Shown: positions 4,033 to 48,031 of the stretch, one piece after another
Position numbering within the stretch: position 1 is the stretch's first letter
Layout: each line of letters starts with the position of its first letter
Origin: an uncultured Candidatus Saccharibacteria bacterium
GTDB taxonomy: Bacteria; Patescibacteriota; Saccharimonadia; JAGOAT01; CAYZIP01
Reading direction: 5' to 3'
Length of the DNA stretch: 49,537 nt
Assembly: GCA_964478695.1 (NCBI GenBank)
Contig: CAYZIP010000006.1
Location: 1 to 49,537 of the forward strand
Notes under the pieces: model-generated
The model's input: the letters and a program-made list of their open reading frames with translations, nothing else
What the model was told of the DNA's origin: nothing
Database searches by the model: none
Made by a program: the position numbers and the translations under genes

Positions 4033-5674
4033 TCACTTTTATTCTATTAGTCAAAATAGGTAATTTAGGCCAAAATCTAGGACTAGAGTTGATACTAAAA
4101 CCATCCATTTCTTTAACACTAGCTCTTAAAATACCTTCTACATCTTTGACTGATTTAAAACGTAATTTTCTAGAAAGTTCTTGTCTGGCAATAATGGCTC
4201 CAGACCACACTGTTGTATCTAAATCTAACATATATTGACCATCTCCAATATCTTTAACTGTGTTAAATTTAATAGATGCAAAGTCAAAGTCATATATCTT
4301 AGACCCAGCTTCTACTTTTTTATTAGCATTAGCCTTAATAATATCTTCTATTTCTGAGCTCTTGACGGCAGTTATGGAGTATTTTAAACTAAGTTTTAAA
4401 ATTCCTTCTTTATTCTCACTGCCTACAGGAGCACTAAGCTCTTCTTTTTCTATAGTTTGTACTAAAGTTTCTGGGATCAAGACACTATCACTTGGTAATT
4501 TTTTGCTTAAATCGGCAATAATCTTATCTCTATTATATTCTCTTAATTTATTTTTTAAATTATCAACATCACTAGAACTAACTATTTCTATAAATTTCTC
4601 TTGTCCGCCAGTAGTGGTTCCTACGCCACCGATTAGATCTGGCATTCCTTCTATAGTGAAGAATGTATCACTTAAATTAGAAGACTCTCCATTATTAATG
4701 GCTTGTACTTTGAGTTCTACTGAACTAGATTTACAAACAGACCCTCCTCCACTAAACACTCCGGCTGGAACCTCTACACTATTGTTGGCTATAAATTCTT
4801 TTCCTTTAGATAATACCTTGGCCCCACTGCTAATAGTATGCCCACTGGTATCATCACAATTTTTTATCATTACAGACCCACTAGCCTTGGTCCCAATATC
4901 TTTTTTACCACTAGCCTGATAATGCTCTTCCACATACTGAGATTTGTCTAAATAATTAGCACTTAAAACATTGTTTGCTAAATCACTCTTAATACTATTG
5001 GTGTCTAGGGTAATGTTAGTATTAATCTTAACTGCTGCAGCTTTAATATAAACAATAATATTAGCGCTAGGAACTATCACCATTAATGCTATTAGCCCTA
5101 AAAGCAGCACTAACACCATAGCGGCTTTATTAAGCCTAGATTTTAATAAATCAAAATTGGGGACACTGGGCTGGCTATACCCAACCACATTGTCGATTGG
5201 CTCAGACTGATGATGGGTTTTTTTTGAGTCAACCCCACTTGCTTGAACATATGCTAAATTAGCATCTTCTATATCACCATATTCTTCAATAGTATCTATG
5301 TCTTTAGCTTGCTCCTCTGGGATATTCTCACTGAGCCTAGAGCTGCTATTGTCATGAATCTTAATATCTTTTATATCAGCCTTAGTACTGTTTATTTTTT
5401 CTAAACCATCATCATGAATACTATTTAAATATGCTATATCATATCTGGACAATACTTTATGCAGACTAGTATCGCTAGTGATAATTACAATACTTTTACC
5501 CATTTTCTTGACACTACTATCTAAAAGCTTTAGATTAATACTACTTTTGGCCAAAACAGAGCGGCCAGGAAGCACTAACTTAATACTACTACTATGATGT
5601 TTCTTTATTAAATCTATAGCCTCAGTAATATCGGCATCATTTTCCAAATATAAAATAGCGCTTTTATTATTCAT
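4013..5674 (-). CDS. Single-pass membrane protein with a baseplate-J-like beta-rich extracellular region (conserved CPR-type hypothetical)
   Basis: Cytoplasmic N-domain (DADITEAID...KLVLPGRSVLAKSSINLKLL), acidic linker, one TM, then G.KASGSVMIKN and G..YN-like segments typical of this family. The stop overlaps the ruvX start. Confidence 0.65.
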   Translation of the reverse strand: MNNKSAILYLENDADITEAIDLIKKHHSSSIKLVLPGRSVLAKSSINLKLLDSSVKKMGKSIVIITSDTSLHKVLSRYDIAYLNSIHDDGLEKINSTKADIKDIKIHDNSSSRLSENIPEEQAKDIDTIEEYGDIEDANLAYVQASGVDSKKTHHQSEPIDNVVGYSQPSVPNFDLLKSRLNKAAMVLVLLLGLIALMVIVPSANIIVYIKAAAVKINTNITLDTNSIKSDLANNVLSANYLDKSQYVEEHYQASGKKDIGTKASGSVMIKNCDDTSGHTISSGAKVLSKGKEFIANNSVEVPAGVFSGGGSVCKSSSVELKVQAINNGESSNLSDTFFTIEGMPDLIGGVGTTTGGQEKFIEIVSSSDVDNLKNKLREYNRDKIIADLSKKLPSDSVLIPETLVQTIEKEELSAPVGSENKEGILKLSLKYSITAVKSSEIEDIIKANANKKVEAGSKIYDFDFASIKFNTVKDIGDGQYMLDLDTTVWSGAIIARQELSRKLRFKSVKDVEGILRASVKEMDGFSINSSPRFWPKLPILTNRIKVNAELKK

Positions 5675-41471: not shown

Positions 41472-41874
41472 ATCTCCATGTATGGCTATAAGTGGAAATT
41501 TATTATGGTAGAAACAAAAGTCATGATAGAAATGAATAAAATATACTAGACACCATTAACTATGTCCTACTTTTATTTAAAGCACTTTCGTCGTGGACTT
41601 TCCCTGTGCTCTTTAGCACTACCATCACTTACTCAACACCCTTATGATGATGTCAATCAAAGGCTTGTCCCGGCAAATAGTTAATTGCTGGTCATTACCT
41701 CAAAATATTGATTTGAAAGGTGTTCAGGGCTAGCATAGTCACTACTACTATGAGCTTCTTCTTTTATAGGATATCCGACTAAGTATGTTTTATGGTACTA
41801 CGTTATTACTATCCATGCTATTCACATTATGCCTTACCAAAAAGTTCAGTGATTTTTTTGTATACTAATAAGTA

Positions 41875-42738: not shown

Positions 42739-43806
42739 CTATTGCTTTGGTCTTAGCAGATCCAATAGGCCAATATTTGCAAAGAATAAGTATTTTCCCA
42801 CTTTAACAGATTGCATTACGCCAATCCTTTCCAGGCTCTTAAGATGACTTGAACCAGTCTGATAAGTTACTTTTAGCATTTCTCCATATCTTGTCGGTGT
42901 GATGAAAGGTTGATTAAAGATTGCGTCCACTAAGTCACGAGAGTAGATTTTCGGTAATTCTTTCCTTATTTTTCGCTTAACTTCTTCATGCAAGTCTTTT
43001 ATTTTAAGAAGAATATCAGTACTTTCGATAGCCTGTTCTTTGAATGCATTCAACATATAGTTTATGTAGCCCTGCCAATCACCCTCATCGGTAACTTTTC
43101 TAATAGCCTCGTAATACTCGCTCTTGTGATTGTTAATGTACCCACTAATAAATAGAACAGGTAGGTCAAGCAAACCAAAATGAGTAAGACACAGAACCAT
43201 TAGTATTCTCCCAGTTCTACCATTACCGTCACCAAACGGGTGTATGGCCTCAAACTGATAGTGAGTAATTATTGTTATGAGAATAGGGTCTATGCCTATA
43301 GGGTTTTTATGTATGAATGTTTCAATGTCCGATATTAAGTCAGGTATTGAACTAGCGGCAGGTGGTGTGTAGATTACTTGCTTGGTCTTATCGTTGATAA
43401 GTGCGTTTTGGGTTTGCCTGAAGCCCTTTTCGTATGGCACAAGCATGTCATGCACTTCCTGGATTAATCTTGAGCCAATCAGTACTATATTTAGCATCTT
43501 CAACCCATGAGAAAGAGCGTGATTATACCTCAAAACTTCTTTATCTGCTGTCTGTTGCTCAGCTTCAGAGAATAACTGTGCCTGAAGTACATCTGCAAAT
43601 GTAGTGATTATATTTTCAATCTCAGAACTCGCAAGTGCTTCCCTTAAGACGGTTGGAGACAATAGAAGTTGGGGATTAGGCAAGCCATAACAGGCACCCT
43701 TAAGAATACCAATTTGCTTATGAACGTCAATCAGTTGCTTATTAAACTCATCAAAGTTGATTTCCTTTAGTACACTTAGTTTCTTTAGCTGATGTGGGTC
43801 ATTCAT
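42739..43806 (-). CDS. Fic-family protein (class II: N-terminal inhibitory helix, Fic core, C-terminal wHTH)
   Basis: HPFGDGNGRTGR canonical motif; ASSEIEN matches (S/T)xxxE(G/N); C-terminal HTH. SD GAAAGGAAG. Confidence 0.93.
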   Translation of the reverse strand: MNDPHQLKKLSVLKEINFDEFNKQLIDVHKQIGILKGACYGLPNPQLLLSPTVLREALASSEIENIITTFADVLQAQLFSEAEQQTADKEVLRYNHALSHGLKMLNIVLIGSRLIQEVHDMLVPYEKGFRQTQNALINDKTKQVIYTPPAASSIPDLISDIETFIHKNPIGIDPILITIITHYQFEAIHPFGDGNGRTGRILMVLCLTHFGLLDLPVLFISGYINNHKSEYYEAIRKVTDEGDWQGYINYMLNAFKEQAIESTDILLKIKDLHEEVKRKIRKELPKIYSRDLVDAIFNQPFITPTRYGEMLKVTYQTGSSHLKSLERIGVMQSVKVGKYLFFANIGLLDLLRPKQ

Positions 43807-43827
43807 AAACTTCCTTTCATTTAATAC

Positions 43828-43872
43828 ATATTACGTCATATATTAAAAAAAGTCAATTTCTTTAATATATGA
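43828..43872 (-). promoter_or_regulatory. fic promoter with a palindromic operator-like site
   Basis: TTGACT(43856-43851)-N17-TAATAT(43833-43828); 12-bp perfect inverted repeat tcatatattaaa (43836-43847) / tttaatatatga (43861-43872) straddling the -35 box. Confidence 0.6.
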
Positions 43873-43892
43873 TAGCCTATATATACAATCGC

Positions 43893-43982
43893 TTAATACG
43901 TGCTAAGTTCCATATTAATAAAAGAGAATTTGCTTAATATACTACAGGCAGTTAGTATTTTGTAAGTTTTGCAGTCTTTCAC
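43893..43982 (-). CDS. 29-codon small ORF (MKDCKTYKILTACSILSKFSFINMELSTY); leader peptide or truncated gene
   Basis: GTG start 7 nt after the strong SD AGAAAGGAG; sits just downstream of the 44028-44056 terminator. Confidence 0.4.
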   Translation of the reverse strand: MKDCKTYKILTACSILSKFSFINMELSTY

Positions 43983-44027
43983 TTAGACGCTCCTTTCTAG
44001 TTAGCTATAACCGCAGGAAAGTGCCTT

Positions 44028-44056
44028 AAATAAAAAGGGACACCGCCAACGGTGTC
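44028..44056 (-). terminator. Intrinsic terminator
   Basis: Minus strand GACACCG-UUGG-CGGUGUC followed by CCUUUUUAUUU. Confidence 0.75.
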
Positions 44057-44175
44057 TAAACTGTTTTTTCCACAATAAGCTTTCACCTACTGTTTCGGGC
44101 GATGCCCCTTTCTAAGGTGAACAAGCCGAGCGGAAAAACCGACGGTTTCTTATTGCGTATTTAACAGTTTAGACA
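44028..44175 (-). ncRNA. Candidate structured leader RNA / sRNA (unclassified)
   Basis: Perfect 13-bp closing stem (44053-44065 / 44163-44175), a 9-bp inner stem with a G-U pair only on the minus strand, two further hairpins, a promoter immediately upstream and a terminator immediately downstream. Confidence 0.62.
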
Positions 44176-44181
44176 AGACTT

Positions 44182-44190
44182 ATTATAGCA
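44182..44190 (-). promoter_or_regulatory. Extended -10 promoter TGcTATAAT
   Basis: Perfect consensus; predicted start about 44175, the first base of the 13-bp stem. Confidence 0.65.
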
Positions 44191-44207
44191 TCCCGTCATC
44201 TAGCGGA

Positions 44208-44804
44208 CTATTTCTCGAAGACTTTGTACTCACCCTCTTCTTGGGCGTAAATAGGTAGCGACTCATCGCCGTATTCTTCAAGTTCACGTTTTGCTTGCTC
44301 CCAGTCGATACTACCCCTCGGGTCATCTGCACCAAATGCTGAGTTATAGTGGGGTATAAACTTGATAGGCAATACACCGAAGCCATCACCACACTGCCTC
44401 CAGTCGCAAGTCCAATAGTGAGCAACAAGTAGGTTGGAGCTTGCTGAGTTAGTAGCAATAACCTTGTCTTTGAATAGTTCCGCTAAATCAAACTTACGCA
44501 TCCAGTACTGTACTAGGTGGTCATCTCCGCCGTGAAAGTAAATTATGTCAGCATCATTGCATTGCTCAGCGAAAGTATCGGGCATAGCTAAAGCAAATGA
44601 TGGACTTACAGTATCTGGCAAGTCTTCTGATATGGCGTCGGAGTAGCCTTGAAACTTCTCCTCCCAATACTCTCTACCTTGAGCAAAGTTGCACAGCAAG
44701 AACTTGGGATTATCGCTTAAACCTTTTACAAGCTCTTGATGGAACTCTCTTTTAAGCATTGGTGCGTTTTTAATACCCCCCGAGTTGAGAACGTACTTTG
44801 TCAT
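44208..44804 (-). CDS. Peptidase E (S51) / type 1 glutamine amidotransferase-like protein
   Basis: IIYFHGGD, TNSASS nucleophile elbow, FIPHY. Confidence 0.8.
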   Translation of the reverse strand: MTKYVLNSGGIKNAPMLKREFHQELVKGLSDNPKFLLCNFAQGREYWEEKFQGYSDAISEDLPDTVSPSFALAMPDTFAEQCNDADIIYFHGGDDHLVQYWMRKFDLAELFKDKVIATNSASSNLLVAHYWTCDWRQCGDGFGVLPIKFIPHYNSAFGADDPRGSIDWEQAKRELEEYGDESLPIYAQEEGEYKVFEK

Positions 44805-45289
44805 TTCAAGCCGTCCCTAAGATTTTCAAGAGAAAGGTCTACTCTGTAGTCTCGAATAAACACACCCTCTTCAATCTCTGCGTCGTTCATCCAGACTTTC
44901 TCAGGAGTTGCTTTGTACATATAGCGGACTGATTCACCGAGAAGACTGTCAGGCGATTGCTCAAAGTCAGAACCCTTTTTGATTCGTCTTACTTTTAAAA
45001 TTTCATCTGGGTCAGTAACTTGCTCTACGCTAGCTTGGATATAAACTCCCTCGCCATCGCCTTCTGGTACGGTTGAGTCGTAGATGACAATAAAGACCCT
45101 GCTATTGTTGGTGACGTTTTTAGAGTGCTGCCCCTCTTTGTCTGACACCCAGTAAACATTGAGGTCGCTATCGTATTCGTGTGCAACTGGGCTATTCCAA
45201 GGCAAACCGTCAGGAGTGACTGTAGCTAGGGTTGCATATCTGATTTGTTTTATAATTTCTACCGCACGTTTTTCGTGATGCTCGCTCAT
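44801..45289 (-). CDS. Pyridoxamine 5'-phosphate oxidase-like FMN-binding protein
   Basis: YATLATVTPDGLPWNSPV, YWVS...QHSKN, GVYIQA. ATGA overlap with the downstream gene. Confidence 0.88.
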   Translation of the reverse strand: MSEHHEKRAVEIIKQIRYATLATVTPDGLPWNSPVAHEYDSDLNVYWVSDKEGQHSKNVTNNSRVFIVIYDSTVPEGDGEGVYIQASVEQVTDPDEILKVRRIKKGSDFEQSPDSLLGESVRYMYKATPEKVWMNDAEIEEGVFIRDYRVDLSLENLRDGLK

Positions 45290-45345
45290 AGTTTCATTAT
45301 ATACCAGATAACTGTTGAACCTAGATTACAAGCTATAATGATGGT

Positions 45346-47205
45346 ATGGCTGGAGAGAGACGAAAACGCAAACCTATTGAAAGAGTTACCCTAACGCCCG
45401 AGCAAGTTAAGGAAGCTGAGGGCGTAATTGAAGATGCACTGAAAGATAATCCAAACGTTTACGACTTACCCGAGAGTAAATACAACCTAGATACACTTGC
45501 CAAGTTCTTTGTAGAGAGCAACAATGACAGCCAACTTATATTGCCTACTGAGAAGAGGCGTTATGTAGTGTATCTACGCAAGTCTACCGATAGCGAAGAC
45601 CGCCAAGTACGTTCTATAACCGACCAAAAAGCAGAGTGTTTATTGCTTGCAAGAACGCTTGGTATAACAGTACGAGAACAGGATATTCTTGAAGAAAGTG
45701 CCTCAGCTAAGAAGTCAGGTCGTAAAGAACGACCAATCTTCAACACGATGCTGGACGGTTTTAGAGCTAGTAAGTATCACGGTCTAATAGTTTGGTCTCC
45801 CGACCGCCTTTCACGCAATATGAAAGATGCTGGTGAGATTATTGAAATGATTGACCTAGAAAAGATACAAGACTTGCATTTCAAGACGTATCAGTTTGAG
45901 AACAACCCTAACGGCAAGATGCTACTTGGTATCCTGTTTGCCACCTCCAAGCAATATTCCGACAAGCTTTCGACTGACGTTAAACGTGGCACTGATGGCA
46001 ACGCCAATGAGGGTAAATACAATGGGGCTGTCAAAAAGGGCTACTTTGTTGATATGGAAAGTAAACACTTTTTGCCAGACGGACATAATTGGCAACTACT
46101 ACGCCAAGCAGTACTTATGAGGCTCAGGGACAAGAAGACCAATCAAGATGTTGCTGACTTCTTGAACGACAGCAACTTTAGCCAACGCAAAACTCAGTAC
46201 GACGAATATCAAAAGGTTAAAATGACCAAGCAAATGGTCAGCGATATGTTTAGCGACTCGTTCTACTGTGGCATTTACCAGTATGGTGGTAACGTTGCCA
46301 ATATTGTTGACCTGTATGGCTTTTTGCCTGTCTTTACAGCCGAGGAGTTCATACAGCTTAGCCGTAAGATGTCCGATAACTTCGACGAGGAGTTTAAGGG
46401 TCGGGGCTCTAACGCACAACGGCTCGATTTTGGAGTACTTAGAGAAAAAGTTATCTGTGATTATTGTGATAGACCGATGGGCTTCCAGCGAACTAAGATA
46501 CCAAGAGGAAAAAACCAAGGTCGCTATATGATTAGTTTCTACTGCCGTGATAATGGTCAGAATTGTCTACGCCACAATAACGAGGAAGCTATAAAACAAT
46601 ACGGTAAAAAGCTTAGCAAAAGTGTCAGACTCAAGGATATAACGCCACACATCGCTTGGACGATACAGAACTGTACTAAAGACAGCAAGAAAGCATACGA
46701 CTACTATATCGAACGTCTAAAAAGTGAAGTTGCTGTCAAACGTGAGACAGCTAAACGCAAGCTGGCTGATGCTAGAAAAGAAGTTGCTAAGCAAGAAGAG
46801 ATGCTAGCCCAGTATCAGAACTTTCAAGTACAGCACCCTGAAGATTATCAGAAGTACCACAAAAATAAGCTAGAGGAGCATCAACAGCTCCTTGATGTAC
46901 ATAGTGTAAGTGTCTCTAAACTAGAGAAAGAACTCGAAAAACTCAAGCAAGATTTACCAACCCGCAAAGAGTTTGCTGAACTCGTCCAATCGTATCTGTT
47001 AATACTACGTACAACCCGTGATTTGGTGGAAGAGGACGAAGTGTACAAAGAGATGGTGTTGAACCTACGTGTTAGGGACGACTCCGCCCCTGTTATAAAA
47101 TTAAATCCACCATACAATTTGATGGTGGATTTAAGTAAAATCGTTTCTGGTCGGGGTGAAAGGACTCGAACCTTCGACCTCATGCTCCCAAAGCACGCGC
47201 GCTAG
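45346..47205 (+). CDS. Large serine recombinase (resolvase + recombinase + Zn ribbon + coiled coil)
   Basis: YLRKSTDSEDRQ..S...Q catalytic Ser, ESASAK...RPIF, DRLSRN, CDYC...YC...C. The last 19 codons lie antisense on tRNA-Pro. Confidence 0.93.
   Translation: MAGERRKRKPIERVTLTPEQVKEAEGVIEDALKDNPNVYDLPESKYNLDTLAKFFVESNNDSQLILPTEKRRYVVYLRKSTDSEDRQVRSITDQKAECLLLARTLGITVREQDILEESASAKKSGRKERPIFNTMLDGFRASKYHGLIVWSPDRLSRNMKDAGEIIEMIDLEKIQDLHFKTYQFENNPNGKMLLGILFATSKQYSDKLSTDVKRGTDGNANEGKYNGAVKKGYFVDMESKHFLPDGHNWQLLRQAVLMRLRDKKTNQDVADFLNDSNFSQRKTQYDEYQKVKMTKQMVSDMFSDSFYCGIYQYGGNVANIVDLYGFLPVFTAEEFIQLSRKMSDNFDEEFKGRGSNAQRLDFGVLREKVICDYCDRPMGFQRTKIPRGKNQGRYMISFYCRDNGQNCLRHNNEEAIKQYGKKLSKSVRLKDITPHIAWTIQNCTKDSKKAYDYYIERLKSEVAVKRETAKRKLADARKEVAKQEEMLAQYQNFQVQHPEDYQKYHKNKLEEHQQLLDVHSVSVSKLEKELEKLKQDLPTRKEFAELVQSYLLILRTTRDLVEEDEVYKEMVLNLRVRDDSAPVIKLNPPYNLMVDLSKIVSGRGERTRTFDLMLPKHAR
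47101..47134 (-). terminator. Terminator hairpin for tRNA-Pro, embedded in the recombinase CDS
   Basis: 13-bp perfect inverted repeat ttaaatccaccat / atggtggatttaa with an 8-nt loop, 13 nt beyond the tRNA CCA, followed by UUUU on the minus strand. Confidence 0.65.
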
Positions 47206-47224
47206 CCAACTGCGCCACACCCCG
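47148..47224 (-). tRNA. tRNA-Pro (UGG)
   Basis: CGGGGTG TGGCGCAGTTGGCTAGCGC GCGTGCT TTGGGAG CATG...GGTTCGAGTCC...CACCCCGACCA. Confidence 0.95.
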
Positions 47225-47284
47225 TAATATATTTATTATATCCTTACCTAAACAAAATGGCTATAGCTTCGATATAGAAAGTGA

Positions 47285-48031
47285 TTAGCGCTTACCTACT
47301 TTTCTAACAGCCTCTTCTACTGTAGATATGAAATCAGATGGAAATATAATAGTAGAATTCTTTTCTACTGCAATTTCAGAGAGAACCTGTAGATTACGCA
47401 ATTGCAAGGCTACTGGATGCGCGGCTATCTGGTCTGCGGCCTTAGCTAAGTTGTCTATAGACAGCATTTCCCCTTCAGCTGCAATAATTTTAGCTCTCTT
47501 TTCTCTATCAGCTTCGGCTTCTTTGGCCATAGCTCTCTGCATACTTTCCGGCAATTGAATATCTTTAATCTCCACAATGGTTACCAAAACTCCCCAAGCC
47601 TCTGTCTGTGTGTCTATAATATCTCTAATCTTAGCATTAATCTTTTCTGTATTGCTCAGTATTTCATCCAAACTAAACTGTCCGGCAATATTTCGTACTG
47701 TAGTTTGAGCTATTTGATCCACCGCCCTAGCAGCATTATCTATAGCTACTAAAGATTTGGTAGCATCAACTATATGAAAATAAGATACGGCGGCCACATC
47801 AATAGAAACATTATCTCTAGTAATGATCTTTTGTGACGGAATAGGCATAGTAATAGTGCGCATATCCACTCGACGCAATTGATCTATGATAGGAATAATC
47901 CAATTCAGTCCAGGGCCTTTTTCTCCAACCACACGACCCAGACGAAAAACAACACCTCTCTCGTATTGCCATACTATACGTAATCCAGATAATAAAATTA
48001 TAAATATAATTAATAGTAATACAGGAAGCAT
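47285..48031 (-). CDS. SPFH/band-7 (stomatin/slipin) protein
   Basis: [59 protein letters not shown]. Confidence 0.93.

Follow-up and report, generated by a model that had tools for sequence, protein, structure and literature searches.

What is encoded immediately upstream of the fic gene in a recombinase island of an uncultured Candidatus Saccharibacteria bacterium, and which gene could it regulate? The question was raised by an earlier note on contig CAYZIP010000006.1 (positions 1 to 49,537, referred to here as the window). From the letters alone, the note proposed that the minus strand between positions 44190 and 43893 carries an undescribed regulatory RNA, attenuator-like or riboswitch-like, of integrative elements of the candidate phyla radiation (CPR). 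Patescibacteria have tiny genomes with very few recognised regulatory RNAs, and to our knowledge next to nothing has been learned of how cargo genes on their mobile elements are controlled. The proposal held up well, as homologues with many compensatory changes were identified in a recombinase setting. Sequence comparison shows the element to be one copy of a previously uncatalogued family of structured 5′ leader RNAs, which occurs almost only in Saccharibacteria/Patescibacteria assemblies. We consider it probable that the family acts in cis as a riboswitch-like attenuator leader, with a proposed effector and a relay of four RNA segments, on serine-recombinase islands that are typically associated with transfer RNA (tRNA) genes. 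The copy in the window is intact as an RNA, while its gene is truncated.

A family of leader RNAs upstream of one small gene

Reading the minus strand from 44190 to 44028, we found every element listed in the note in its place; the promoter, the two long stems, the terminator, the Shine-Dalgarno (SD) sequence and the GTG codon were thereby confirmed. The element begins with an extended −10 promoter, TGcTATAAT (TGCTATAAT, 44190-44182), from which transcription is predicted to start at about 44178-44174. The first helix, P1, is a perfect 13 bp stem between UGUCUAAACUGUU (44175-44163) and AACAGUUUAGACA (44065-44053), and the second, P2, is a 9 bp stem with one G-U pair between CGCAAUAAG (44157-44149) and CUUAUUGUG (44079-44071). 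Stacked on each other, P1 and P2 close a three-way junction with two further helices. These are P3, a hairpin taken from the predicted fold (CCG-U-CGG-UUUUU-CCG-CU-CGG, 44145-44126, with an internal loop and a U-rich apical loop), and P4, in which UUCACCU (44121-44115) pairs with AGGUGAA (44088-44082). The terminal loop of P4, 26 nucleotides (nt) long (44114-44089), displays an 11 nt segment, referred to as A (GGGGCAUCGCC, 44108-44098), between conserved A-rich flanks (..AAA.. and ..AA(A/G)CA..). Past the junction, the terminator scan returned the hairpin GACACCG-UUGG-CGGUGUC (44056-44039), followed by CCUUUUUAUUU. Its 5′ arm, GACACCG (44056-44050), is denoted T5, and its loop and 3′ arm together are denoted T3 (T3ext in its extended form, GGCGGUGUCCC, 44047-44037). 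The hairpin is G+C-rich and lies directly before the U-run CCUUUUUAUU, which gives it the form of an intrinsic (Rho-independent) terminator, and the U-tract (UUUUUAUUU, 44036-44028) was present in nearly every aligned sequence.

Folding of the 149 nt stretch gave a minimum free energy of −51.5 kcal/mol (z = −4.96 against dinucleotide shuffles, with 0 of 200 shuffles as stable). The opposite strand folded too (z = −4.5), because any long inverted repeat must fold on both strands. A covariance model, built from 29 leaders on P1-P4 only and not including the pseudoknot pairs described below, scored 172.3 bits on the minus strand of the window and 26.4 bits on the plus strand, and therefore the minus strand was settled as that of the RNA.

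The homologue search and the tally of downstream genes that the earlier note had suggested as a check led to one and the same gene in about 70 loci. A DNA pattern derived from the invariant block of the P4 loop retrieved ten loci in genome assemblies, mostly labelled Saccharibacteria, Saccharimonadia or Patescibacteria; all ten had the same −10 box, helices, hairpin and U-run, followed about 45 nt further on by an SD sequence and a 75-codon open reading frame (ORF). A metagenome scan anchored on the protein added 79 further loci. Full-length matches to the covariance model were obtained at about 70 loci (58 distinct sequences), mostly labelled as metagenome-assembled genomes (MAGs) of Saccharibacteria or Patescibacteria, and there the leader was always upstream of the gene for the 75 amino acid (aa) protein, on the same strand. 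Its position in the 5′ untranslated region was constant, before either the 75-aa gene itself or a two-gene operon that includes it, as is usual for riboswitches. Loci that seemed leaderless at first carried the leader about 190 nt before a 150-200 aa ORF preceding the 75-aa gene. The family RNA is about 150 nt long, and a TGnTAtAAT-type box stands at the same spacing to P1 in nearly all homologues displayed. One genome can hold two leader-operon cassettes of different subtypes, as with L063 and L076 on the same 848-kb contig; likewise, L021 carries two cassettes of different subtypes (2484-2633 and 4812-4958) 2.3 kb apart.

The note recognised no known Rfam class in the element, and indeed no Rfam 15 family reached its gathering threshold over the leader. 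At gathering thresholds, the 4227 models of Rfam 15 matched only four tRNAs in the window and only tRNAs in 14 homologous loci; in a permissive scan the top minus-strand match over the leader was Phe_leader, which scored 14.8 bits where the gathering score is 55. No description of the leader RNA turned up in literature searches, BLASTN of the leader against phage and plasmid collections matched nothing real, and a pattern scan of viral contigs for the leader returned nothing.

Several known classes were tried and rejected. Signal recognition particle RNA, 6S RNA, Y RNA, transfer-messenger RNA, T-box leaders and ribozymes were dismissed because either an Rfam match or the partner gene was missing. 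A retron msr-msd was discarded as no reverse transcriptase is encoded nearby, and an IS110-type bridge RNA as the neighbouring recombinase is a serine recombinase, not a DEDD enzyme.

Covarying helices and a long-range pseudoknot

Covariation was counted on an alignment of 59 sequences (58 distinct). All 13 pairs of P1 showed changes on both sides, with 95.7% of the cells paired, and compensation was likewise complete in P2 (9/9 pairs; 94.4% of cells paired). The stem UUCACCU/AGGUGAA of the earlier note corresponds to the conserved P4, in which 5 of 7 pairs were compensated and 97.3% of the cells paired. The inner 3 bp of P3 were 92% paired and all compensated, with the outer pairs poorly aligned (64%). 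None of 500 shuffles reached the observed values, and slid partners gave 36-48% paired. RNAalifold, run on the same alignment, independently recovered P1, P2 and P4, with compensation at 25 of the 27 pairs. Two smaller hairpins proposed in the note fared worse across the family. AAACC-GUC-GGUUU is not the conserved P3, which lies at 44145-44126, and GGGC-AUC-GCCC was 81% paired, with one pair broken in 27 of 58 sequences. The leader has, in sum, a conserved structured domain with covariation, as expected of a riboswitch.

These pairing patterns bear directly on whether the element acts as RNA at all. Its place next to a serine recombinase, the near-perfect palindrome GACACCG-TTGG-CGGTGTC and several loci with leaders broken near this palindrome would suit an attachment or binding site of the recombinase, made of inverted repeats and acting as DNA. 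However, a purely DNA-level site is contradicted by the G-U pairs, which fit one strand only (172 vs 26 bits by strand), and by compensatory changes, which keep the pairing and not the sequence. Nor does such a site agree with the conserved promoter, the U-tract and the fixed orientation to the gene, or with the occurrence of the same RNA beside recombinases next to six different tRNAs. We therefore regard a DNA-level element as very improbable.

The same alignment contained a long-range helix between A (44108-44098) and T3 (44047-44037), which was 98.4% paired, with 5 of its 11 pairs compensated and 3 more varying compatibly. Here too, no shuffle out of 500 came up to these values. The compensations included G-C to A-U in 18 sequences, C-G to U-A in 17 and C-G to G-C in 17. 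The alignment had not been fitted to this helix, because the model that produced it was without those pairs. A:T3 stops exactly at the U-run and, in one large subgroup, includes its first U. As they share T3, the A:T3 pseudoknot and the local T5:T3 terminator hairpin are mutually exclusive. The local hairpin was 90.3% paired and had no pair changed on both sides, a pattern to be expected where one segment has to match two partners. The A-rich stretches on either side of A were at least 90% conserved across the 59 sequences, and none of the proposed pairs involves them. Duplex energies were about −20.6 kcal/mol for A:T3 and about −10.5 for T5:T3, and the nested states were about 2.6 kcal/mol apart, so that a pseudoknotted ground state is plausible. 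The earlier note had seen the exclusive pairing elsewhere, in the four nucleotides (GACA) that end the 3′ strand of P1 and also belong to the 5′ arm of the terminator. This overlap is real, but a role for it as the main switch is not supported, the main competitor for T3 being the segment at 44108-44098.

Alternative pairings around a terminator, together with a reverse strand that folds well, also recall the attenuators of plasmid rep genes. The earlier note had pointed to control of the pT181/pIP501 type and to a possible counter-promoter on the plus strand (TAGACG-N16-TATAAC, 43984-44011); in such a scheme, the counter-transcript would pair with the leader and force the terminator to form. 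The leader does share with those attenuators mutually exclusive terminator and pre-emptor pairings on a mobile element. Unlike them, it has no supported promoter for a counter-transcript, no rep gene and a different fold. The promoter scan did not return the proposed site, whose −10 candidate TATAAC is without the final T of TATAAT and which sits in a conserved spacer folding as a sense-strand hairpin; this fold may explain from the sense strand why the spacer is conserved. No convincing plus-strand terminator was found in the homologues, and the downstream gene encodes a 75-aa TM2-like protein, not a replication initiator. Antisense attenuation is thus highly unlikely, and the suggested counter-promoter could not be upheld.

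The masked start site and a proposed relay

Beyond the U-tract, the spacer of most homologues folds into a hairpin that masks the SD sequence. In the window this hairpin spans 44026-43985 on the minus strand, where the anti-SD stretch UUCCU (44019-44015) pairs with the SD sequence AGGAG (43994-43990) read from that strand; the window copy is weakened (z = −0.7). Among 53 spacers the median z was −2.9, and 40 of them left no more than one nucleotide of the SD sequence unpaired. Examples of the anti-SD/SD pairing in homologues are GGCACUCC with GGAGUGUC, GACACCCC with GGGGUGUC and GCACUCC with GGAGUGC. The 5′ part of the anti-SD element, referred to as D (GGCAC, 44025-44021 on the minus strand of the window), has the form G-R-Y-A-Y in 43 of the 53 spacers and is complementary to T3, which makes T3 a hub with three alternative partners (A, T5 and this downstream element). 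The T3:D duplex had a median energy of −7.4 kcal/mol, compared with −4.9 for shuffled D. In the clade of L083, L089 and L074, T3 ends in ..GUCG, and both A (CG..) and D (CGAC..) are altered to match. Two sets of mutually exclusive pairings (A:T3 vs T5:T3, and D:SD vs T3:D) are therefore available, as in an expression platform, and we infer the direction in which they work.

The start codon after this hairpin, a GTG at 43982, opens the first 14 codons of the conserved 75-aa gene (43982-43941, minus strand). The window is homologous to every intact locus between about 44190 and 43941, and the homology ends there, inside codon 14-15; the sequence from 43940 to 43893, which completes the 29-codon ORF, is an unrelated read-on outside the family. 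The missing 3′ part of the gene was looked for throughout the window and was not found. Therefore, the 29-codon ORF consists of 14 real codons plus read-on, which agrees with the earlier suggestion that the original downstream gene may be truncated. In the window the leader has thus been orphaned, but its sequence still turns up in RNA runs.

At intact loci the gene encodes a conserved protein (MKDRKTYKILT...YMDKTFDEAMAKRGFxNTxIRN) with about 100 clusters in a large protein collection, nearly all unnamed and one labelled as a TM2-domain protein. Pfam TM2 matched 9 of 32 members, all below threshold. A cluster look-up returned only "hypothetical protein" names from Saccharibacteria and Nomurabacteria MAGs, with no cultured strain. 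Relatives with 51-57% identity occur without the leader on three viral contigs (IMG/VR, L090-L092) and in early regions of Oenococcus phages. One of these, in phage vB_OeS_unk162 (MF939898.1, 31468-31689), lies among small early-region genes, is annotated as hypothetical and has no leader. The optional first ORF of the operon (150-200 aa; present in L021, L032, L036, L040, L043-L062, L072, L073, L077 and L083-L089) has a shared, near-identical N-terminal membrane anchor (..FKKWWFW.., IFKKWWFWVIVVV) followed by one of at least three unrelated extracellular domains. One of these extracellular domains gave a weak, sub-threshold match to DUF4352.

Rearranged loci linked the leader promoter to this operon. 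The terminator and the 3′ half of the leader are deleted in L065 and L067, and the promoter with the 5′ half, up to the P4-loop segment, is fused to the ribosome binding site of the operon, about 560 nt upstream of the 75-aa gene. It follows that the leader promoter is the operon promoter. At L013-L015 the 5′ part of the leader was lost, and only the last 60-odd nt remain.

Taking these elements together, we propose the following relay. Transcription would start from the extended −10 promoter, and the RNA would fold into the P1-P2 stack and the three-way junction, with the P4 loop presenting A. T3 could then pair either with A, as a pseudoknot, or with T5, four nucleotides of which also belong to P1. 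In the OFF state, capture of T3 by A (or T5) would set a helix against the U-run and lead to termination, and the D:SD pairing would block translation. In the ON state, an effector occupying the conserved P4 loop would leave T3 free while the polymerase passes the U-run; T3 might next pair with D and free the SD sequence. Which helix terminates, the relay itself and the existence of an effector are what we infer. Read in this way, each conserved element would have a role, and the transcriptional and translational layers would remain coherent. If A:T3 were instead an antiterminator, the polarity would be reversed, and transcripts that read through would have their translation masked; we rank this possibility lower than the relay.

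A number of observations weigh against this interpretation. The support for T3:D is modest (the energy difference from shuffled D and one compensated clade). P1 (13 bp), P2 (9 bp) and the 11 bp pseudoknot are more stable than typical ligand-gated helices, and both A:T3 and T5:T3 abut the U-tract, so that the direction of the switch is not readable from sequence. Constitutive partial termination is possible. The window itself has no intact gene left to regulate, and the 75-aa protein had no Pfam match above threshold and an AlphaFold model of low confidence (predicted local distance difference test, pLDDT, 64.7). The evidence from RNA runs consists of assembled contigs and may include DNA.

As for that evidence, contigs from wastewater metatranscriptomes carried the exact leader sequence as well as 85-90% variants in different flanks. 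In one metatranscriptome the contig identical to the window stops at 44027-44029, at the U-tract, as do several variant contigs, and one contig from an RNA run spans P4 through the U-tract to the start codon. Leader-only and run-through contigs fit partial termination and are not decisive. They are assembled contigs without strand or true depth, and one further run (X49) is probably DNA or amplicon.

Leader-only contigs would also be expected if the main product were a discrete, very stable small RNA (sRNA), locked at its 5′ end by P1 and at its 3′ end by the pseudoknot and made in excess over a rare read-through mRNA. Such an RNA could be an antitoxin or regulator of the small protein, and the locus would then stabilise the island as an addiction or exclusion module similar to type III or type I systems. 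The layout of promoter, RNA, terminator and small gene at the edge of a mobile island agrees with this explanation, as do the repression of the small gene at two levels, the two T3 helices that both abut the U-tract and a protein that is small, helical and TM2-like. Like the type III toxin-antitoxin (TA) system ToxIN, the locus has one promoter, a structured RNA, a terminator between the RNA and the protein gene that limits read-through, and the protein gene itself; unlike ToxIN, it has no tandem repeats (none of the ToxI kind was found in 43700-44400), and its 75-aa protein has no ribonuclease domain and does not belong to an endoribonuclease family. On the type I side, the case for a small hydrophobic toxin consists of the sub-threshold TM2 matches in 9/32 members and a low-confidence structural model, and no partner sRNA, either antisense or divergent, was identified. 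Relatives of the protein in phage early regions do without the leader, and a role in trans is not required, because the read-through mRNA carries the same leader in cis. This alternative seems to us unlikely, though far more credible than either the DNA site or the antisense RNA.

Regulation in cis by an attenuator leader, which we prefer, belongs to a known kind (terminator-based and riboswitch-like), but the platform is unusual. Fluoride/crcB, ZTP/pfl and preQ1 are pseudoknot riboswitches with terminator competition. The leader resembles them in being a structured 5′ leader whose pseudoknot strand overlaps an intrinsic terminator, in its conserved unpaired nucleotides around the pseudoknot and in its association with one gene family. 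It differs from them in sequence and structure (no match in Rfam) and in its much longer helices, and its pseudoknot uses the 3′ arm and the loop of the terminator, so that the alternative helix also abuts the U-tract. Multi-segment attenuators are a second point of comparison: in the trp leader, 1:2/3:4 pairing alternates with 2:3, and in the ermC leader 3:4 masks the SD sequence. With these the leader shares four serially complementary segments (A/T5, T3, D and the SD flank), a terminator within the leader and a middle pairing that would free the ribosome binding site. Unlike trp and ermC, it has no conserved leader peptide across the family, and a stalled ribosome is an unlikely trigger because a covarying three-way-junction domain carries the first segment in one of its loops. 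A third comparison is the HMP-PP (thiS) riboswitch, which the abstract of PMC6478431 describes as using a "terminator-embedded aptamer". In the leader, too, the proposed sensor and the terminator share nucleotides and are not separate modules, although the leader is much larger and folds differently.

Whether the proposed effector is a small ligand is a narrower matter. Purines that are conserved and unpaired, together with a pseudoknot, are what a riboswitch aptamer typically shows; helices of this length fit one less well, though the genome has a G+C content of about 35%. Only tentatively, then, do we suggest a new ligand-sensing riboswitch class, which would be the first specific to CPR/Patescibacteria. 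Its pocket might be formed by the A-rich P4 loop and the T3 pseudoknot, and it might switch on the operon for the surface protein and the TM2-like protein on serine-recombinase islands in response to a signal that reflects, for example, contact with a bacterial host or the element's own state.

The recombinase island and the meaning of the leader

Divergent from the leader, the window encodes a large serine recombinase (45346-47205, plus strand; Pfam Resolvase and Recombinase), the 3′ end of which overlaps a tRNA-Pro gene on the opposite strand (47148-47224, minus strand). About 30 loci have such a recombinase gene, divergent and 45 nt to about 4 kb upstream of the leader, with variable cargo between the two. 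Wherever positions were compared (the window, L001, L006, L007, L012, L026, L027, L029, L035, L040, L058, L063, L074, L077, L083 and L089), the recombinase gene ends within or directly beside a tRNA gene of the other strand. Which tRNA this is varies by locus, being Pro (the window and many others), Val, Leu, Ile, Gln or Gly, and it looks as if related recombinases target different tRNA genes. At most of the loci whose gene order was compared, a convergent gene closely follows the 75-aa gene. From this recurrent arrangement, it appears that the cassette moves together with the recombinase and delimits the variable region on the side away from the recombinase gene. In one subgroup there is no recombinase, and the order is PMT_2, tRNA-Pro, and then the leader with its operon. 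A role of the RNA as a guide for the recombinase is unlikely, because similar A/T3 segments accompany different tRNA sites and different A/T3 segments accompany the same tRNA-Pro site.

A second, decayed copy of the leader lies in the window in the opposite orientation. It is a 5′-truncated fragment of the 3′ end (41547-41595, plus strand; TAGACACC...TGTCC..TTTTATTTAAAGCACTTTC), covering the terminator and spacer region, and forms an inverted repeat with the main copy. The two copies flank fic and a 247-aa ORF, which suggests repeated rearrangement at this spot. The leader unit does not include the fic gene (Pfam Fic_N, Fic and SoFic-like_C), for which the promoter scan gave a separate promoter-like site. 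From its translation, the Fic protein (42739-43806, minus strand) carries HPFGDGNGRTGR and an N-terminal SSEIEN stretch (S-x-x-x-E-N); on the pattern of known Fic classes, it is predicted to be an active Fic enzyme with a built-in inhibitory helix. A 33-nt imperfect inverted repeat lies just upstream of fic (43819-43889). The region 44001-47500, which holds the recombinase gene, two cargo genes (a PNPOx-like one of 162 aa and an unassigned one of 198 aa) and the leader, has a G+C content of 0.41-0.44, compared with 0.29-0.41 (mostly 0.33-0.38) elsewhere in the window.

The leader family offers a concrete handle on regulation in Patescibacteria. Its design is unusual, as the loop of a three-way junction captures the terminator's own 3′ arm and a mask over the ribosome binding site follows. 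It also points to a conserved small protein, which phages have as well and whose expression is tightly held in check. Should there be a ligand, the leader would represent a new riboswitch class and give a hint at the function of the 75-aa protein; if there is none, the locus may instead represent a novel type of RNA-protein module that maintains integrative islands.

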